A stretch of DNA of 64,000 bases, taken from assembly GCA_021799535.1 (NCBI GenBank), contig JAJZAH010000003.1:58067-122066 (forward strand), in the 5' to 3' direction. The DNA comes from Nanobdellota archaeon. Lineage in GTDB: Archaea > Nanobdellota > Nanobdellia > Pacearchaeales > GW2011-AR1. The position numbers were made by a program, and so were the translations under genes. Positions 358 to 52,962 of the stretch are shown here, in pieces. The notes under the pieces were generated by a model. It had not been told where the DNA came from, did not search any database, and saw nothing but the letters and a program-made list of their open reading frames with translations. Positions within the stretch are counted from its first letter, which is position 1. Each line of letters starts with the position of its first letter.

Positions 358-374
358 ACCCTTCTATGGAAGGT
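358..374. promoter_or_regulatory. 17-bp imperfect palindrome ACCCTTC-TAT-GGAAGGT, putative operator of the adjacent HTH-10 regulator
   Basis: 16/17 identical to the reverse complement of 1037..1053. Lies just upstream of the TATA box of the gene starting at 323. Confidence 0.6.
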
Positions 375-1036
375 TATTTAGATATAAGTTTGGGAAGCAG
401 CTTGAACTCAGCTTTTCTCAAATTTTCCCTGAAAGTCTGCTTGGAGACTTTTGCAATCTTAGAGAGCTTGTCAAGATTGGTCCTTCTCGGAAAACCATAA
501 TACCCGTTCTCAAACGCGAGTTTTATCGCTTCTTCCTGCCTTTTGGGCATTTTGGGAAGGAGCCTAGTCAGATAGACGTCCTCAAGGTCATTTTGCGAAA
601 ATCTCAATATCTCAAAATATGTCGTGTTCTTACCTTCTTTCATTGTCTTGATTAGATTCTCAAGGGGTTTCCTGTCCCAGCAAGCGACTTCTATCACTTC
701 AAAACCATCACTACTCAAATATGCAGGAGACGGGTAAATGAAAAGAGAGTTATAAATGGATTCATAAATCTTAAACTCTTTTTTGTTCTTTGCCAAAGTG
801 ATTATTGTACTTCCATGAACTTCACATTTCACAACCTGCTTATGGTCTTTCATGTATCTTGCATATTTTTGGATATCTTTTTCATGGCCATTCAATTGCT
901 GGATTGCAGAAGTATAGATATAATCCCCCTTAATGTAATGGCCAAGGTAATAAAAGAAAACAGAAAGTTTCAATTTAGAGAGTTTTGGGGCATAAATGCA
1001 GTCGTCATGCTTGTATTTGAATTTCAGATACCACAT
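374..1036 (-). CDS. HTH-10 (bacterio-opsin activator-type) transcriptional regulator
   Basis: C-terminal RQEEAIKLAFENGYYGFPRRTNLDKLS...TFRENLRKAE motif. Start set at MWYLK (1036) by the 29-nt TATA spacing and by the paralog start MWVAK. Confidence 0.85.
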   Translation of the reverse strand: MWYLKFKYKHDDCIYAPKLSKLKLSVFFYYLGHYIKGDYIYTSAIQQLNGHEKDIQKYARYMKDHKQVVKCEVHGSTIITLAKNKKEFKIYESIYNSLFIYPSPAYLSSDGFEVIEVACWDRKPLENLIKTMKEGKNTTYFEILRFSQNDLEDVYLTRLLPKMPKRQEEAIKLAFENGYYGFPRRTNLDKLSKIAKVSKQTFRENLRKAEFKLLPKLISK

Positions 1037-1053
1037 ACCTTTCATAGAAGGGT
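1037..1053. promoter_or_regulatory. second copy of the 17-bp palindrome, abutting the regulator's own start codon (autoregulatory site)
   Basis: ACCTTTC-ATA-GAAGGGT lies between the TATA box (start 1065) and ATG (1036). Confidence 0.6.
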
Positions 1054-2526: not shown

Positions 2527-2874
2527 ATGAGAAAAAACCAAGTTAATGGAATCTTAAACGATCTTATAAAACTAAATTCGTGGAACAGCCCAGCAAATAG
2601 CATGTGGATTCCAAAAAAATATGAAATTAACTTAATAACAGGTAAGGTGAAGCCAATTATTGGGAACGATATATCTGAATATCTGGATTATAAATCGAAA
2701 TGGTTTAAAGAGAGGATTAGGGAACTCGATGGTGACCTCAAAGATTTTCAAAAAGCGGCCATTACTCTCTTTGGAGCACGTGAAAAGGCTGTATTAATCT
2801 ACAAAGGGGAAGAATTCAAAAAAGATAAGTCTATAATAAAAAAAGGAGCAAGTTACTTTGAAAAATACTCGTAA
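2527..2874 (+). CDS. hypothetical protein inserted in the suf cluster
   Basis: 115-aa ORF starting 1 nt after the sufB stop. No recognisable motif. Confidence 0.6.
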   Translation: MRKNQVNGILNDLIKLNSWNSPANSMWIPKKYEINLITGKVKPIIGNDISEYLDYKSKWFKERIRELDGDLKDFQKAAITLFGAREKAVLIYKGEEFKKDKSIIKKGASYFEKYS

Positions 2875-2875
2875 A

Positions 2876-3238
2876 ATGAAAACCGACTCAATATACAAAG
2901 AAGAGATAATGGAGATATATTCAGAGAAGCCGAATTTTGGAAAGCTCGAGGGAAAAACCCATGAGGCGAAACTCAAGAATCCGGGATGCGAAGACGAATT
3001 CAAGATCGAACTCAAAGTTGAAGGTGGAAAGATAAAAGACGCAAAGTTCACGGGAAAAGGCTGTGTCATATCGACAGTCTCAACTGCGATACTCACAGAA
3101 AAGATAAAAGGAATGAGATTATCTGACGCTCAAAGGATGTCAAAAAAAGATATGGATAAATTTTTAGGAATGGAAGTCATACCCACGCGTATGAAGTGCG
3201 AACTACTGGGACTTGAGATATTAAAGAGAGTAAAATGA
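2876..3238 (+). CDS. sufU: SufU/IscU-family scaffold
   Basis: NPGCED, GKGCVIS and RMKC motifs supply the three conserved Cys. Start chosen at MKTDSIY. Confidence 0.9.
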   Translation: MKTDSIYKEEIMEIYSEKPNFGKLEGKTHEAKLKNPGCEDEFKIELKVEGGKIKDAKFTGKGCVISTVSTAILTEKIKGMRLSDAQRMSKKDMDKFLGMEVIPTRMKCELLGLEILKRVK

Positions 3239-3978
3239 AATCAAAAAAAATACTTGAGATAAAAAACCTTCACGTGGAAGTTGAAGGAAAGGAGATACTT
3301 AAGGGCCTGAACCTTACGCTGGAGCGCGGGAAAATAAATGCGCTTATGGGTCCGAATGGCTCCGGAAAATCCACGCTTGTAAACGCAATAATGGGTCACC
3401 CAAAATATATTGTGACAAAAGGACAGATTTTATTTGAAGGAGAAGACATAATAAATCTGTCTCCGGACAAGAGGGCAAAGAAGGGGATATTCTTATCATT
3501 TCAGTATCCGCGTGAAATCTCGGGAGTGGGCGTCTCGAAATTCTTAAAGACCATTTCAAAAAAACTCAATCCCGAATTTTCGCTTACTGATTTCAAAAAG
3601 AATCTGAAAGAAAACTCCGAGATTCTAGGGATATCGAAAGAAATGAATGAAAGGTATCTAAATGCTGGATTTTCGGGTGGCGAGAAGAAAAAGAACGAAA
3701 TCCTGCAGATGCTTATCATGAACCCTCAGCTAATGATGCTTGATGAAACAGACTCAGGCCTTGATGTCGATTCATTAAAAACCGTAGCTAAAGGGGTAAA
3801 TGCCGCAATGGGAAAAGATAAGTGTGTCTTTATCATCACACATTACAAAAGAATACTTGAATACGTGAAGCCCGATAAAGTCCTCATAATGATAAATGGC
3901 AAGATTGTGTTATCCGGAAGCGGAAAGCTCGCTGACGAATTAGAAAAAAAAGGTTATGAATGGATAGAGGAAGATTGA
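3235..3978 (+). CDS. sufC: Fe-S cluster assembly ATPase SufC
   Basis: GPNGSGKST, GHPKY, FQYPREI, FSGGEKK, LDETDSGLD and ITHY motifs. Confidence 0.95.
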   Translation: MKSKKILEIKNLHVEVEGKEILKGLNLTLERGKINALMGPNGSGKSTLVNAIMGHPKYIVTKGQILFEGEDIINLSPDKRAKKGIFLSFQYPREISGVGVSKFLKTISKKLNPEFSLTDFKKNLKENSEILGISKEMNERYLNAGFSGGEKKKNEILQMLIMNPQLMMLDETDSGLDVDSLKTVAKGVNAAMGKDKCVFIITHYKRILEYVKPDKVLIMINGKIVLSGSGKLADELEKKGYEWIEED

Positions 3979-4005
3979 TTCTTGGAAAATTATTTAAAAT
4001 ACAAA

Positions 4006-4019
4006 GCATACATGTTCGC
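4006..4019. promoter_or_regulatory. putative operator GCATACATGTTCGC abutting the start of the second HTH-10 gene
   Basis: 12/14 match to the palindrome GCGAACATGTTCGC. Core ACATGTTCGC recurs at 4690..4699. Confidence 0.55.
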
Positions 4020-4670
4020 ATGTGGGTTGCAAAACTTAAATGCCGACATGATTGCCTCATAGGAAACAGATGCAAAAAATATGGCATAGAGGCAAGTGCA
4101 TATGAACTTGGAAAAACTAAACAGGGGAATGTTCTTATCTCTAATTCCGTTCACCAACTTTTCGGAGAAGAAAAACAGATAAAGAAGTTCGTTGAAGACC
4201 TGAAAAAAGACAAAGATGTCATACATACAGAAATGAAAGGAGATATGTTATTCTTAGTTGAAAAGAAGAAAGGAACCCCTGTCAAGGAATATTCAAGAAA
4301 CATATTTTTCGCATCTCCGGTCACAGTCGACAAAAGAGGATATGAGTATTGGGAAATCGGGTCATTCGACAGGAATGAGTTAAATAAATTCATAAATAAG
4401 TTAAACAAGATTTGTTATGAACTTGATGTAATCTTTATCAAAGAGACACAAGCCCAGAATATATTCTTCCCGAAGATACTTCCAAATCTAACTGGTCTCC
4501 AAAAGAAGGCAATTGATTTGGCAATAAAGGAAGGATATTATCATGTCCCAAAGAAGATTTCTTTAAGACAACTCGCAAAACACATGGGGATTGCTCTTTC
4601 GACTTATCAGAGGCATCTTCAAGTAGCCGAAGCAAAACTCATCCCAAATCTTTCTTTTGACCTGAGATAG
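4020..4670 (+). CDS. HTH-10 (bacterio-opsin activator-type) transcriptional regulator, paralog 2
   Basis: LTGLQKKAIDLAIKEGYYHVPKKISLRQLA...STYQRHLQVAE motif. N-terminal MW..K.K..HDC shared with paralog 1. Confidence 0.85.
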   Translation: MWVAKLKCRHDCLIGNRCKKYGIEASAYELGKTKQGNVLISNSVHQLFGEEKQIKKFVEDLKKDKDVIHTEMKGDMLFLVEKKKGTPVKEYSRNIFFASPVTVDKRGYEYWEIGSFDRNELNKFINKLNKICYELDVIFIKETQAQNIFFPKILPNLTGLQKKAIDLAIKEGYYHVPKKISLRQLAKHMGIALSTYQRHLQVAEAKLIPNLSFDLR

Positions 4671-4684
4671 TCCCCTTCTTTGGT

Positions 4685-4735
4685 GCGGGACATGTTCGCT
4701 AGAAGGAATAAGTAGTTATTAAGTAGTCACTACTT
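4685..4735 (+). promoter_or_regulatory. promoter of the methyltransferase-radical SAM operon: operator copy 4685..4699, weak TATA AATAAGTA near 4707, perfect inverted repeat AAGTAGT-C-ACTACTT 4721..4735
   Basis: Repeats read directly from the sequence. Confidence 0.55.
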
Positions 4736-4736
4736 C

Positions 4737-5654
4737 ATGACAAATAGACTTCCGAAAATTATAAGGATTGGGAAAGACCCCACAACCGCAGAACTGAAAA
4801 ATTCATTGAGAAAAAATGAGATTCCATTAAAATTCTGCTATATGGGACAAGGGGCGAAATGCTGGAACAATCTGAGAGAAAGCAAAGAGTATAAATTAGG
4901 GGACAAATGGGTTTACATCCTAGAAAAGACGTTACCTCAGGTTAGGAAGAGATTAAACGGAGAAGATTACAATTTGATTCATGTTGGTCCCGGGAACGGT
5001 ATTGAGATCCCCTCATTTCTTGGAAGCATTGGATTAAATGGTAAAGCGAGATACTGCGGAATTGATGTAAGCAGAGACATGCTTGAACTGGCAATAGAGT
5101 CCAACAGGGACACCTTAAATCAGAAGAATTCAGTTTGGTACCAGTCCGATGTTGAATCAAAAGGAAATCTTGAAAGGATAGCTAAGGGCATTAGAAGAAA
5201 GTACTCGGAGAGGAGTCTTATTCTATTAACAGATGAAGGAACTCTCCTATCAAATAAGAGTATCTTCAAGGAACTCTACAGAGCCCTCGGTAAAGGGGAT
5301 TATGCCTTAATCACGATTGAAGGGGACAACCCGGAAAAAAGAGGGGAAATTTTGCAAACTTATTCTCTTCCTCAAACATTAAAGATACTATCAGTAGGCC
5401 TTAGGAAGGCAGGATATGATTATAATCGTGGAAGCTTTTCCTTTTCTTTCAATGAAAGAAGATCACGAGTGGAAGTTTATTTCAATACCCATGTGGGGAA
5501 TAAGCTTCTTTGCCTAGCCTCATATAAACCAAAAAAGGAGGAATTTTTCAATGAATTGAAATCCTTTGGATTTGATATCCCTTATTTCAAATTCCATGAG
5601 GAAGCCTGGGCTTTCTCAGTTCTCTTGGAGAAAAGAGACAAAAATGTTCAGTGA
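4737..5654 (+). CDS. EgtD-like (Methyltransf_33) SAM-dependent methyltransferase
   Basis: N-terminal IPLKFCYMGQGAKCW...EY motif resembles EgtD. SAM motif HVGPGNG, GIDVSRDML, FNERRSRVEVY and SYK. Confidence 0.75.
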   Translation: MTNRLPKIIRIGKDPTTAELKNSLRKNEIPLKFCYMGQGAKCWNNLRESKEYKLGDKWVYILEKTLPQVRKRLNGEDYNLIHVGPGNGIEIPSFLGSIGLNGKARYCGIDVSRDMLELAIESNRDTLNQKNSVWYQSDVESKGNLERIAKGIRRKYSERSLILLTDEGTLLSNKSIFKELYRALGKGDYALITIEGDNPEKRGEILQTYSLPQTLKILSVGLRKAGYDYNRGSFSFSFNERRSRVEVYFNTHVGNKLLCLASYKPKKEEFFNELKSFGFDIPYFKFHEEAWAFSVLLEKRDKNVQ

Positions 5655-6789
5655 ATTTTATCCATCTGCTGACAAGGAAGTTAGAAGTATCTTAAAAAAT
5701 GTGAAATCTCCATCGGAAGAAAAAGTTAAAGACATTCTTGAGAAAAGCAAAACTGAAAGTTTGGATTTACCTGAAATCGCTGAACTGTTGGAAACTAGGG
5801 GCGATCAAAGTTTTGAGATGATGAGGGATTTTACACTTGAAAATTTCAGAGGTCCAGAAGGCAATGAACTGAGGAATATCTCTCCAATTTACCTCTCAAG
5901 TCATTGCATCGATAAATGTGGTTACTGTCAATTCTCAGCGAGCAGAACCGACACACAAAGAACAAGACTTTCATTAAACCAACTTGAAAGAGAGGTTTTA
6001 TCTGTGATTGACGAGGGGAACAATGTGATAGAATTCACTCTCGCAACAGATCCTGACTTTACCCCGGGAAAACTTGCAGAATATGTAAATAAAACCAAAA
6101 AGATCTTGGGCGACAGAAAAGGAAGTGGCGTTCTCCTTTGTTCAGATTACCTCACAGAAGAAGATTACAAAAATCTCAAAGAGGCGGGACTCTGGGGTAT
6201 TATCCAATGGGACGAAACTCTTGACAGGTCAAAGTACGAAAAGTGGCACGGGCAGAGCCCCAGAAAAAAGAACTTCGAAGAAAGAATGGACAACCATGAC
6301 CGCGCCGCCAAATCTGGGCTTGAATCGGCAACGGGAGTCTTGTTCGGACTTTCTGACTTCAGATACGACGTCTTGATGCAAATTGCAAAAGCAAGGCATC
6401 TGCATAATGAATATGGGAAAAGGCCATTTGTTTTCGGAACCCCAAGATTAAAACCGATAGGGGGAAAGGAAATGCACCCAATAGATGAAGTTGATGACAG
6501 AAAGTACGAAACCGCCCTCATGGTTTACAAAATCGCGGAGCCTGATGTCGCGAGATGGCTCCAGACAAGAGAAATGCCTGAGTTGAATTTCAGGAATATG
6601 CTCGACGGAGATGTTTACACTTACAGATGCGGGGAAGTCAAACCTGGAGGTTACCAAGTCAATAAATCGACAGTCAACTCACTAAAAGGCGGGCAGTTTG
6701 GAGTGAATGAGATGGAAAGAATAGATTTCGAAGAGAAACTGAAAAAGACAAATTTCTCAGTTAATTATTCCTGGATTGGAGGGGATTAA
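5644..6789 (+). CDS. ThiH/HydG-family (BATS domain) radical SAM enzyme, divergent
   Basis: [18 protein letters not shown] (CX3CX2C), ET, GVLFGL, PRLKP, TRE, PGGY and QF motifs. Overlaps the upstream gene by 11 nt. Confidence 0.85.
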
Positions 6790-8747
6790 ATCCTCTTCCC
6801 CCTCAATAAATTTGCATTCGTGACAACAGTTATCGATGATAAAGCCATCGCAATCTCTGCAAATATTGGGTTTAAAACTCCCGCAACCGCAAGAGGGATC
6901 GCGATCGTATTGTAGATGAAGGCCCAGAATAAATTCTGCTTTATTTTTGAAAAAGTAGCCTTCGAGAGTTCAATCGCCTTAGGAACCCCCATTAAAGATC
7001 CATTTGTTAAGATTATGTCACCCGCTTCTATAGCAATATCCGTCCCCGTACCCATGGCAATCCCAACATTCGCTTGTTTTAACGCTGGAGCATCATTAAT
7101 CCCGTCACCTACAAAAGCAACAAGTCCATCCTTGCTTTCGGATTGGAGCTCGGAGACTTTTCTGGCTTTTTCCTCGGGCAGAACATTCGCAATTACTTTT
7201 TTTATACCGACGACTTTGGCTATCGCTTTTGCCGTTCTTTCATTGTCTCCCGTAATCATCACAGTACAATAATTTTTTTTATGCAGTTCATTTAAAGCCT
7301 CAGCGGAATCTTCCTTTACCGAATCGGAAAGCGCAAATACTCCATAAGCTTTTTTGTCCGTTTCACATGACAGGATTACCACCGTCTTTCCTTCATCTTC
7401 AAAGTGACTTATCTCCTTAGAAAATTTTTTAAGGTCTATCCCCGATTCAGTAATCAAACTTTTGTTTCCGATGAGGTATCTTTTTCCAGAAATGATGCCC
7501 TCCACCCCCTTACCTCGAAGGATTCTGAAATTATTTACTGTCTTATAATTCTTCAATTTTGAATAATTTACAACTGTTTTAGATAAAGGATGCTCTGAAA
7601 GTTTTTCTAGACTTCCCGCAATTTCTAAAAATTCCTTCTTGGTCGTGTCACCGGAAATCTTGACATCGGTCACTTCAGGTTTTCCTTTTGTTATCGTACC
7701 CGTCTTGTCAAAAATTACAGTTCTGACTTCTTTCATTGTTTGTATAGCTTCTCCTTTTCTTATTAAAATCCCTTTTTTTGCCCCCATACCTGATCCAACA
7801 GTAAGAGCAATCGGCGTCGCTAAGCCTAAAGCACAGGGGCATGAGATGACAAGAACCGAGATAGCTGCCCCAAAAGCATAACTAAAACTCCCGAAAAAAC
7901 TCCATGCTATGAAAGTTAAAACGGATATTCCCAGAACTAATGGGACAAATATCGCTGTGATTTTGTCTGCAAGTTTTTGTATCGGGACCTTGCTACTCTG
8001 CGTCTCTTCAACAAGTTCAATTATATGAGAAAGAAAAGTATCTGAACCCACCTTCAAGGCCTTGACATACAAAAATCCATCCTGATTTACTGTAGCTCCG
8101 ATAGCGTTATCCCCTTTTCTTTTGTCAACGGGAAAGCTCTCGCCTGTAATCATGGACTCATCGATACTGCTTTCACCTTTTATTACAACCCCATCTGTCG
8201 GAATTTTCTCCCCGGGTTTGATTAGCATGATGTCTCCAACTCTCACCTTGGAAATAAGAATTTCAATTTCTTCCTTGCCTCTAAGTACCCTAGCATTCTT
8301 GGCACCCATCTCCAAAAGCTTCCTTATTTCCTGTCCGGCCTTCCCCCGGGCTTTTGATTCAATATATTTCCCTGTGACAAATATTGCCATAACCATCGCG
8401 GAAACTCCGGAATAATTTTGGATGCTAAGAAAGAAACTGAGTATACCGGTCAGATATGCAACAACTGTCCCAAGAGAAATGAGAGAGTCCATATTGAAAT
8501 ATAAGCTTAAAAGACCATGAAATCCGGATTTTAATGTCTGAAGCCCTATTATGAATATGACAGGGAAAGATAAGACCAAAATTATCACAGACATCACACT
8601 TTCATCAAAAAGCATAAAGCCGAAAAGTTTCGTAATATACATAAAAAAGATCACGGGAACCAAAATTATCCAGCTCCAAATAAGCTTTTTTTTCCACATC
8701 TTCGATTCCTCATCCTCTAATTTTCCGGTTTTATTTTCTTTATCCAT
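6786..8747 (-). CDS. copA: Cu-translocating P1B-type ATPase
   Basis: [31 protein letters not shown] and MALSS motifs. Confidence 0.93.
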
Positions 8748-11706: not shown

Positions 11707-12408
11707 ATGAAAGGGACTATAAAAATAAAAAAAAGGGTCTTTTATGTATCACTAATTGCCTTTGTCATTCTCGCCGCCATTATTGTTCTGATAGTTGTTT
11801 CTTCATTGCCCAAAACCCAAAAAAGCAATTTTTCAGTTTTTGATGACGGCAACATATATCCTTCACTAGGTCCGGCAAATGCAAACCATACTGTAATAGA
11901 GTTCGCAGATTTCCAATGCCCTTGGTGTGCAGTTGCCTCAGGGCTACCTGCATGGGCTCAAAGTGCAGCGAACTCCAATTCCAATGTGGCAAGTATGCTT
12001 GGATCTGCCGGGAAACTGGAAAGTATGGCAGAAGATGGCCAGATAAAATTTATCTATGTTCCCATGGCTTTTTTGGGTGATGAGTCGGTCAACGCAGCAG
12101 AAGCCGCTCTATGCGCCAACAGGCAAGGTAAATTCTGGCAGATGCATGATGCACTGTTCACAGCAAATGATGGCAAAGAAAACGACGGTACTTTCACAAA
12201 AGACAATCTGGAGGCTCTTGCGCAAAGCGTACAGGGTTTAGATACTGCTAAATTCAACAGCTGTCTTGAAAGCTCAAGCACGATTTCTGACGTGATGGAA
12301 GCCACAAATGCAGCAGACCAATTCGTTCAAGGAACCCCCACGTTCTTTGTTGACGGAAAACAGATTTCAGGGACCTGGGCAAGTTTACAGGCAGCGTTGG
12401 GACAATAG
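11707..12408 (+). CDS. DsbA-family thioredoxin-fold protein 2 (tandem paralog)
   Basis: TM anchor, DFQCPWC, FWQMHD and GTPTF. Start chosen at MKGTIK. Confidence 0.9.
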   Translation: MKGTIKIKKRVFYVSLIAFVILAAIIVLIVVSSLPKTQKSNFSVFDDGNIYPSLGPANANHTVIEFADFQCPWCAVASGLPAWAQSAANSNSNVASMLGSAGKLESMAEDGQIKFIYVPMAFLGDESVNAAEAALCANRQGKFWQMHDALFTANDGKENDGTFTKDNLEALAQSVQGLDTAKFNSCLESSSTISDVMEATNAADQFVQGTPTFFVDGKQISGTWASLQAALGQ

Positions 12409-23923: not shown

Positions 23924-24049
23924 AGCGGGAGGAGGGAATCGAACCCTCGTTTTACGGATTTCGCGAGCCCGCTCGGAATTGCAAAGAGATTGCCCTTCGT
24001 AAACGTCGCTCACCACAACCGCACGTTCTGCCACTGAACTACAGCCGCC
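23924..24049 (-). tRNA. tRNA-His(GTG) with 54-nt intron (23959..24012) and encoded G-1
   Basis: D-arm GTTCAGTGGCAGAAC; anticodon arm TGCGG-TTGTGG/T-CCGTA; BHB helix UUGU:GCGA; T-arm GAGGG-TTCGATT-CCCTC. The acceptor stem has two mismatches. Confidence 0.88.
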
Positions 24050-36517: not shown

Positions 36518-36643
36518 TGGGCGCGGAGGGAATCGAACCCCCAATCTTTCGGTTACTCTCGAACTCGCTCACGATTACGGATTAATTTCCGCCCACGAAC
36601 CCATTCACTGGAGCCGAACATTTTACCACTAAACTACGCACCC
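36518..36643 (-). tRNA. tRNA-Trp(CCA) with 54-nt intron (36554..36607)
   Basis: Acceptor GGGTGCG/CGCGCCC; anticodon arm TTCGG-CTCCAG/A-CCGAA; T-arm GGGGG-TTCGATT-CCCTC. Confidence 0.9.
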
Positions 36644-52819: not shown

Positions 52820-52962
52820 TCCGCCCACCCAGACTCGAACTGGGGATCTCTCGGGCACTGCTTAAGATCATGGCTTTTAGGGCTTCATCCAGTTTCCTTA
52901 ACGGAATGTCCACCTTAGTTCTAAACTACAGCCAAGCGCTCTAACCACTGAGCTATGGGCGG
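52820..52962 (-). tRNA. tRNA-Tyr(GTA) with 70-nt intron (52856..52925)
   Basis: Acceptor CCGCCCA/TGGGCGG (C1:G72, archaeal type); anticodon arm CTTGG-CTGTAG/C-CCGAG; BHB helix CUGU:GCAG. Confidence 0.92.

Follow-up and report, generated by a model that had tools for sequence, protein, structure and literature searches.

A self-contained cassette pairing a methyltransferase with a divergent ThiH/HydG-like radical SAM enzyme in a Nanobdellota archaeon: a candidate amino-acid modification system

The DNA considered here (the window) is a stretch of 64,000 nucleotides from a Nanobdellota archaeon (assembly GCA_021799535.1, contig JAJZAH010000003.1, forward strand 58,067-122,066), and within it three co-directional plus-strand genes, flanked by a suf operon on one side and by a P-type ATPase gene in convergent orientation on the other, form a compact cassette. 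The first gene (4020-4670) encodes a regulator of the HTH_10 family (216 amino acids), the second (4737-5654) an S-adenosylmethionine (SAM)-dependent methyltransferase with the EgtD fold (Methyltransf_33, 305 amino acids, protein cluster c10), and the third (5644-6789) a radical SAM enzyme of a ThiH/HydG-like clade (381 amino acids). The regulator frame is open from position 3960, and ATG 4020 is most likely its start because ten homologues are 216-219 residues long and begin with MW. The radical SAM gene starts at ATG 5644 and overlaps the end of the methyltransferase gene, stop codon included, by 11 nucleotides; because of this overlap the two genes are probably translationally coupled. The initial annotation of this DNA had described overlapping methyltransferase and radical SAM genes behind an HTH_10 regulator; the gene order and the overlap stand, while the gene starts had to be corrected. 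The host genome assembly comprises 746,762 bases in 8 contigs and is 87% complete, a scope that applies to every search of this genome reported below.

The radical SAM protein belongs to the radical SAM superfamily (41.5 bits against PF04055, gathering score 29.5), and the CX3CX2C motif formed by C88, C92 and C95 is present in all 91 members of its family. Its best NCBIfam match is the ThiH model TIGR02351, at 159.4 bits (158.9 in the genome search) against an equivalog cut-off of 380; it also scores below the cut-offs of the HydG model TIGR03955 (119.6 against 312 bits) and of the PylB model (58 against 348 bits), and its matches to BioB are weak. By sequence its best solved relatives are HydG 4wcx (5e-32) and ThiH 7pd1 (5.5e-18). 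A word-based search returned 268 homologues at E <= 0.001, with 51-74% identity among the 120 listed, and when 1.84 billion representatives were searched exhaustively with HMMER, full-length matches scored 420 and 396 bits, after which the score fell to 177 bits at 35% identity. Two close homologues carry the NCBI names 'archaeon' and 'Micrarchaeia archaeon'; these names, the presence of HTH_10 regulators and tRNA matches whose length suggests introns all point to an archaeal host. The matches of a protein-cluster search are unnamed or labelled as radical SAM/BATS proteins. Ten of the next relatives outside the clade score 61-230 bits against the ThiH model, all below its cut-off. A tree was built from 93 family rows and 11 distant relatives; two rows (L008 and L079) that held a wrong overlapping open reading frame (ORF) were ignored in it and dropped from the residue-conservation alignment, leaving a family of 91 sequences, which is separated from its nearest relatives with 99% support in the Shimodaira-Hasegawa-like approximate likelihood ratio test. 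Judged from these comparisons, the enzyme is a member of a distinct clade within the ThiH/HydG/NosL-type family that is neither ThiH nor HydG. The divergence proposed in the initial annotation is thereby upheld, and a grouping within bona fide ThiH, which would have spoken against it, was not recovered in the tree or in the model scores. A literature search, limited to one library and judged on titles and the openings of abstracts, brought up no title on this clade or on its pairing with a methyltransferase. Among the distant ThiH-like relatives two kinds of fusion were noted (P0141, P0145, P0138 and P0139), one joining a radical SAM domain to SIR2_2 and FCD domains (709-785 amino acids) and the other consisting of HypC, a pair of radical SAM domains and BATS (881-906 amino acids).

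The most informative differences lie in the substrate pocket. In ThiH of T. carboxydivorans, as described in PMC9046217, R300 and E158 grip the amino and carboxyl groups of tyrosine, and T299, S318, S321 and R306 contact the phenolate; the PDB chain is offset from this numbering by 10 residues, as derived from the alignment. The archaeal enzyme shares with this ThiH (7PD1/7PD2) the fold family, the length class, an N-terminal-side CX3CX2C, a C-terminal GQF and the 'TRE' motif, in which T299 and R300 are retained as T308 and R309. In contrast, E158 is replaced by C166 and R306 by N315, the position of S321 is mostly Glu or Asp and occasionally Asn or Lys, and the position of S318 is variable: it is Arg or Lys in the archaeal clade, and 44 of 67 bacterial members have Ser there. 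C329, a new cysteine, stands between the positions equivalent to S318 and S321. The motif QWDET, where ThiH has YQEVY, is found in all 91 members save for one Leu at the Q, and C166, W189, D190, E191, T192, T308, R309, N315, C329, G330 and P334-G336 are invariant in 91 of 91. The other aligned motifs of T. carboxydivorans ThiH are LSTRE and SAGSCT..GG; the changed forms named in the initial annotation (QWDETL, LQTRE and a third motif) are all present in the window enzyme, and their core residues are those that prove invariant. The tyrosine-binding residue set of TIGR02351-type proteins is not present as a whole and, since the phenolate-binding residues are lost, tyrosine is not an obvious substrate. 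The enzyme thus retains the backbone grip of the amino-acid lyases but has its own, unvarying side-chain pocket and carboxylate partner. A further difference concerns HydG: the enzyme ends at residue 381 and has no cysteine after C329, so that the HydG-type C-terminal auxiliary-cluster domain, with its CX2CX22C motif, is missing, as had been noted from the sequence alone.

The methyltransferase can likewise be placed by fold more closely than by family score. It scores 43.2 bits against PF10017 (gathering score 23), and an AlphaFold2 model built from 8 sequences (predicted local distance difference test score, pLDDT, 86; predicted template modelling score 0.88) retrieved EgtD structures in all of the top 13 listed Foldseek rows (ranks 1-14), over the full length, at E 5e-16 and with template modelling scores of 0.73-0.77, as against 0.37-0.50 for the next class I methyltransferases. 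A profile comparison by hhalign between the c10 cluster, a small subfamily of which 16 proteins were found, and an acidobacterial EgtD that is bona fide by its TIGR03438 score (313 bits, cut-off 291) gave a probability of 60% and an E value of 8.4e-5 over 213 columns. The EgtD-like character claimed in the initial annotation is supported by both the modelled fold and this comparison. Numbered against M. tuberculosis EgtD, Y35, Y52 and Y209 of the window protein, unchanged in all 8 sequences, correspond in the alignment to Tyr39, Tyr56 and Tyr206; in EgtD, according to the residue roles given in PMC8593015, Tyr39 contacts the alpha-carbon, Tyr56 and Tyr206 the carboxylate and Asn166 the alpha-amino group. 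The two-domain fold, the PF10017 match and, by alignment, these three tyrosines are shared with EgtD (4PIM, 6FNR, 7SCF), whereas identity is only 14-16%, the score against the EgtD equivalog TIGR03438 is 30.2 bits (cut-off 290.9), and neither EgtB, by genome search, nor EgtC or EgtE is found with the cassette. Because Thr213 of EgtD aligns with Pro212 and the Glu282/Ser284 region is unaligned, histidine specificity is not supported.

The phylogenetic distribution of the radical SAM gene is sporadic. It is missing from all 40 close relatives searched, 22 of which belong to the same genus, and a search of 400 further genomes of the phylum yielded three close orthologues, with identities of 73% (G247), 53% (G410) and 51% (G169); in 13 more of these genomes only distant ThiH/HydG-like genes were seen, at <= 135 bits (for example 122 in G284 and 113 in G372). 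All three orthologues adjoin a methyltransferase and a regulator, in differing arrangements: an HTH_10 regulator 51% identical to that of the window, a 279-residue ORF and the radical SAM gene in G247; a TrmB regulator, the radical SAM gene and a Methyltransf_11 gene in G410; and an Lrp/AsnC regulator, a Methyltransf_25 gene and the radical SAM gene in G169. When the neighbours of 93 loci, including 80 metagenome and 9 acidobacterial genome loci, were clustered and about 40 neighbour proteins put through Pfam, the triad of HTH_10 regulator, methyltransferase and radical SAM gene was found in the window and in 13 other loci, in agreement with the self-contained module first proposed. The methyltransferase of the triad is either the EgtD-like type (c10) or a 279-residue protein without a Pfam match (c11). 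The former occurs in 9 loci, in one of which it is internally shortened to 106 amino acids; the latter occurs in 8, two of them without a regulator, one represented by a 672-residue ORF, and one (L036) beginning inside the c11 gene so that its upstream region is not covered. A Methyltransf_11 gene (c17) lies directly 3' of the radical SAM gene in three loci.

In the tree, the methyltransferase-linked radical SAM genes make up one clade of 24 rows, 21 of which abut or overlap a gene for a SAM-dependent methyltransferase (c10 in 9, c11 in 8, Methyltransf_11 in 3 and Methyltransf_25 in 1). The pairing is conserved across genomes, and the outcome that would have refuted the initial annotation, a pairing confined to this one genome, did not arise; the partner is not always EgtD-like, since four unrelated families take the role. 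Apart from the SAM-binding motif, hhalign detected nothing that relates the c10 to the c11 proteins (probability 0.25), and the possibility that they are divergent orthologues was rejected on this basis. With 99% support, the sister group of the window radical SAM enzyme is the set partnered by c11, even though a c10 protein accompanies the window enzyme itself; c10 partners are spread over three subclades, and the c17 and Methyltransf_25 partners fall inside a c10 subclade. The simplest reading of this pattern is that c10 would be ancestral and was replaced at least two times by unrelated methyltransferases. Such replacement by unrelated families suggests that the methylation step is needed and that the lineage of the enzyme supplying it is irrelevant.

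Several individual loci deserve mention. In L042 (4679-4999) the EgtD-like gene is cut down to a 106-residue ORF made of N- and C-terminal parts, while the regulator, both operators and the radical SAM gene are intact. In L052 (2981-4999) the c11-type methyltransferase lies within the 672-residue ORF, which has weak ACT-domain matches, and no HTH_10 regulator or operator motif accompanies it. A phage-type integrase gene (L048, 3761-4738, minus strand) is located just 5' of a radical SAM gene that branches basally in the bacterial clade, and fits with mobility.

The initial annotation had also noted a putative operator core at the start of the regulator gene and again upstream of the weak TATA of the operon, and comparative evidence now bears this out. 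Within the window the exact sequence ACATGTTCGC occurs only twice, at 4010 and 4690; with one mismatch allowed there are 5 matches against 2.0 expected, an excess that is weak when taken alone. Across 17 cassette-type loci, counting both strands gives 29 occurrences of the motif ACATGTT[CT]G, or 26 distinct sites given that three palindromes are counted twice, and all 26 lie either 10-12 nucleotides before the ATGTGG of the regulator (11 loci) or 46-69 nucleotides before the methyltransferase start. The methyltransferase-proximal site is present in 14 of 14 regulator-carrying loci and is followed directly by TATAAA in most. At one more regulator gene the site differs by a single mismatch, and contig ends cut off the 5' end of two others; no operator site was seen in the three loci that show no regulator, the upstream region of L036 not being covered. 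For comparison, 7 matches were found in 633,554 nucleotides of other loci and 5 in the 746,762 nucleotides of the window's own genome, two of the latter being the cassette sites. A possible third copy, GTACATGTTCGCTAT (contig C5, about position 12010; L122:3011), lies inside a minus-strand ORF of 409 amino acids and was judged to be a chance match. A real conserved element, CATACATGTTCG, is strongly supported by these data, and its putative roles are read from position only.

At the first site, CATACATGTTCGC (4007-4019, plus strand) abuts the regulator start codon and lies between a TATA-like box, TTATTTAAAA (3990-3999, plus strand), and the transcription start; the extended site CATAC-ATGTTC-GTATG is an inverted repeat into which the start codon falls, about 10 nucleotides 3' of the box, and an autorepressor would be expected to bind at such a position. 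Because this box is situated some 26 nucleotides before the start codon, it may serve as the promoter of a leaderless regulator mRNA, and A/T boxes occur at the same distance from the regulator start in homologous loci. The second site (4690-4699, plus strand) is 47 nucleotides 5' of the methyltransferase start and abuts the upstream side of a TATA-like stretch that is weaker in the window than the TATAAA found elsewhere. The regulator itself matches Pfam HTH_10 in its C-terminal part (E 3.3e-15, 56.1 bits, gathering score 23.1). Its N-terminal domain matched nothing in Pfam and nothing informative among PDB sequences, and H10 and C12 of this domain are invariant in an alignment with 9 orthologues and one paralogue. 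A second HTH_10 regulator gene is present in the window (374-1045, minus strand, 223 amino acids), divergently oriented upstream of the suf operon; its product is 28% identical to the cassette regulator and shares the N-terminal MW..H.DC.

The position of the cassette is revealing of its origin. In a DNA search of 25 relatives, sufC and the ATPase gene keep their synteny across the genus. In two relatives of the same genus (G006 and G003) they are separated by only about 170-250 bp, and in four others (G007, G009, G011 and G013) by about 1-1.6 kb of other small ORFs; none of the gaps fetched from relatives (L112-L117) contained a homologue of the regulator, methyltransferase or radical SAM gene, or the operator motif. 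The cassette is accordingly interpreted, from this synteny, as having been inserted between these two genes. The gap separating sufC from the ATPase gene is a variable spot in the genus. It had been suggested that the adjacent suf genes could supply the iron-sulfur cluster, but the link is not conserved: no suf genes were seen beside other cassettes among the neighbour clusters, and the adjacency is accidental because it results from the site of insertion. Taken as structural claims, the distinct clade, the conserved cassette, the operator and the insertion can be held with high confidence.

The genomic context also bears on function. In the host genome ThiG is represented only by partial Pfam matches over 53 positions (22.8 and 19 bits), and ThiE (TMP-TENI), the [FeFe] hydrogenase large subunit (PF02906) and EgtB were not found; the initial annotation had remarked that thiG/thiS, hydEF and egtB are lacking in the window, and the genes searched for here are not found in the assembly as a whole. 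The cassette is not one for thiazole or thiamine synthesis, nor for hydrogenase maturation. Nor does the radical SAM family act as the sole ThiH of Acidobacteria, a possibility that was considered and discarded: all five acidobacterial genomes searched that carry it also possess a closer ThiH/HydG-like gene, at 293-302 bits against the ThiH model. ThiO was not found above its cut-off in the acidobacterial genomes carrying the family. In acidobacterial G438-G442 a ThiH/HydG-like gene for 471 amino acids stands beside another radical SAM gene (e.g. G439:C14:286333-287406), and the EgtD match in G439 is broken into three pieces.

The interpretation favored here, with a probability of about 0.5, is that of an autoregulated cassette in which a free amino acid is cleaved or rearranged by radical chemistry, with methylation coupled to this step. 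Under this model the three genes would have been acquired horizontally, and a ligand-responsive HTH_10 regulator would bind CATACATGTTCG at two places, the regulator-proximal site, overlapping the leaderless start, providing autorepression and the methyltransferase-proximal site, abutting the TATA box, controlling the methyltransferase-radical SAM operon. The radical SAM enzyme would hold a free alpha-amino acid through T308 and R309, generate the 5'-deoxyadenosyl radical at the C88/C92/C95 cluster as in ThiH, HydG and NosL, and then cleave or rearrange its substrate; the changed pocket may alter which substrate is bound, what becomes of its bonds, or both, and C166 and C329 could serve as hydrogen-atom donors or sulfur carriers. 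The methyltransferase would act on the substrate or the product and, since the window enzyme has the EgtD fold, its model suggests N-alpha-methylation, so that the EgtD-like type would probably modify the alpha-amino group. What we infer is that the substrate is an amino acid, which reactions take place and in what order, and in which direction regulation works; the earlier proposal, production or cleavage of a methylated amino acid by the two enzymes, is likewise an inference. Amino-acid-type sensors do occur near cassettes, namely the Lrp/AsnC regulator in G169 and the weak ACT-domain matches in one fused c11 ORF. A more specific version, in which an undescribed radical SAM reaction on a free amino acid employs the two active-site cysteines and N-methylation of the product or substrate yields a new small metabolite, a modified amino-acid betaine that the genome-reduced archaea would produce on demand, is doubtful though conceivable; such a reaction may, for example, consist of oxygen-free C-S bond formation or of an unprecedented C-C scission or rearrangement.

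A number of observations weigh against coupled amino-acid chemistry and methylation. The case for an amino-acid substrate draws on two retained residues and the methyltransferase fold, from which such a substrate is suggested. In the methyltransferase itself, EgtD Asn166 aligns with T169, with an invariant N173 four residues on in a gapped stretch, making the correspondence ambiguous, and the region of Glu282 and Ser284 falls outside the hhalign match. The c11 partner was modelled with a pLDDT of 66, and its assignment as a methyltransferase is weak: its top structural matches are all class I methyltransferases at E of about 1e-3, and by sequence its methyltransferase matches have E values of 0.009-0.015. 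Three of the 24 rows of the methyltransferase-linked clade (L034, L035 and L041) have only small unannotated ORFs upstream. The other radical SAM clade, of 67 rows with 96% support, is bacterial wherever named (Acidobacteriaceae), and among its loci tblastn found none of the archaeal methyltransferase types and no such regulator, with only 3 neighbours having been scanned against Pfam. The radical SAM enzyme can evidently work without an adjacent methyltransferase, so methylation may be peripheral to its function. A small upstream ORF (c5) accompanies 23 of 69 bacterial-type loci and contains Cupin_2 in the one member scanned; the ORF of three c19 loci has no Pfam match, and DUF302, DUF2911 or NDH-2 genes lie near further bacterial loci. 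Finally, the metagenome loci are all related and some are identical (L043 and L045; L080 and L081), so the counts given above overstate their independence.

Alternative explanations must be measured against the same evidence. That the enzyme is a divergent but genuine ThiH, making dehydroglycine for thiazole synthesis, might be supposed from its best NCBIfam match, from the name '2-iminoacetate synthase' given by JGI to several homologues and from the retention of T299 and R300. Its score of 159 bits against a cut-off of 380, the replacement of both the phenolate crown and E158, the lack of a real ThiG and of ThiE in the genome, the closer ThiH/HydG-like genes of the five acidobacterial genomes and the absence of the gene from all 40 close relatives nevertheless render this exceedingly improbable, and in place of the thiG, thiS or thiE partners of ThiH systems the cassette has a methyltransferase and a regulator of its own. 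A HydG-like maturase building ligands for a metal cofactor is highly improbable as well. HydG (4WCX, 4RTB), the best-scoring solved relative, does share the N-terminal part and the core barrel, and the position of ThiH E158 also differs in HydG according to PMC9046217, but the archaeal enzyme lacks the C-terminal auxiliary-cluster domain of about 90 residues, reaches 120 of 312 bits against the HydG model, is encoded in a genome in which the hydrogenase large subunit was not found, and is partnered by a methyltransferase instead of HydE or HydF. It is harder to dismiss a BioB-like radical insertion of sulfur or selenium which, together with an N-methyltransferase, would yield a thio-amino-acid betaine by an oxygen-free route resembling that of ergothioneine or ovothiol, the pocket cysteines carrying a persulfide or a small auxiliary cluster. 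The EgtD fold of the partner, the two invariant pocket cysteines, the shared ancestry with BioB that its weak matches indicate, the failure to find EgtB in the genome and the origin of the hosts in mine-drainage and sediment metagenomes would all suit it. Yet EgtD exceeds its cut-off in only one of the five acidobacterial genomes carrying the family, the EgtD-like partner gives way to unrelated methyltransferases in other cassettes, the His-specific residues of EgtD are not demonstrably kept, and there are only two cysteines and no sulfur-donor gene conserved in the cassette, making this route unlikely.

Public sequencing runs containing DNA of the window come from mine-drainage, tailings and sediment metagenomes, with no RNA run among those listed. 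The first two sources invite comparison with metalloid metabolism: here the radical SAM enzyme would join carbon to arsenic or a similar element, and the methyltransferase would methylate the product. Two-gene pathways of this kind, ArsL/ArsM (arsinothricin) and ArsS/ArsM (arsenosugars), are described in PMC8552651 as comprising one radical SAM enzyme, one SAM-dependent methyltransferase and a dedicated regulator and as being inducible and patchy; the cassette, with its sporadic distribution, its predicted inducibility and two invariant pocket cysteines, resembles them by description in logic only. Judged by length and motif position, its architecture differs: BgArsL has 428 residues with CX3CX2C at 194-201 (PMC8552651), as against 88-95 of 381 here, and the window methyltransferase has an amino-acid methyltransferase fold. 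The Methyltransf_11 partner in L029 is a class I enzyme without any cysteine, whereas ArsM needs conserved cysteines (PMC8552651). No ars genes were seen beside any cassette, and a metalloid function is considered very unlikely. Modification of a macromolecule, whether tRNA, rRNA or a protein residue, is also not a likely role. Pairs of a radical SAM enzyme and a methyltransferase that modify tRNA do exist, such as YtqA/MnmM as presented in 10.1101/2023.12.21.572861, and the replacing methyltransferases are generic class I enzymes; against this, the ancestral-looking partner has the EgtD fold and the amino-acid backbone contacts of EgtD, the characterised members of the ThiH/HydG/NosL group all act on free amino acids in the account of PMC9046217, and a dedicated ligand-type regulator and patchy distribution suit conditional metabolism better than a housekeeping modification.

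Uncharacterised radical SAM subfamilies are common, and a new clade alone would represent only modest novelty. In the ThiH/HydG/NosL group small changes to the pocket redirect radical chemistry on amino acids, and a further clade with an invariant cysteine pocket would probably add a reaction type. What sets this one apart is the combination of an invariant cysteine-bearing pocket in a well-studied family with repeated methyltransferase displacement, an autoregulatory operator and a mobile cassette in genome-reduced archaea. The cassette is minimal and portable, and its hosts have hardly any biosynthesis, which makes it likely that its product is ecologically important, possibly in stress protection, detoxification or host interaction; being minimal, it should be easy to test by heterologous expression. 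The exchange of unrelated methyltransferases beside the same radical SAM enzyme provides a clear case of non-orthologous displacement and points to methylation as part of the archaeal pathway. To our knowledge the HTH_10 regulator family is little studied, and the conserved two-site operator offers a ready model for it.

The genes flanking the cassette complete the description of the locus. On the left, the suf operon comprises the SufB gene (1137-2525), an unannotated ORF, a NifU_N gene (2858-3238) and the gene of a SufC-like ABC ATPase (3235-3978); on the right, the convergent P-type ATPase gene occupies 6786-8747 on the minus strand. The unannotated ORF between the SufB and NifU_N genes (2527-2874, plus strand, 115 amino acids) has no Pfam or NCBIfam match, and in G006 and G011, of the same genus, the DNA match skips this stretch (query 1434-1773). 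Elsewhere in the window, three of the five tRNA matches span 125-143 nucleotides (23924-24048, 36518-36643 and, on the minus strand, 52820-52962), which suggests that they are intron-containing tRNA genes.

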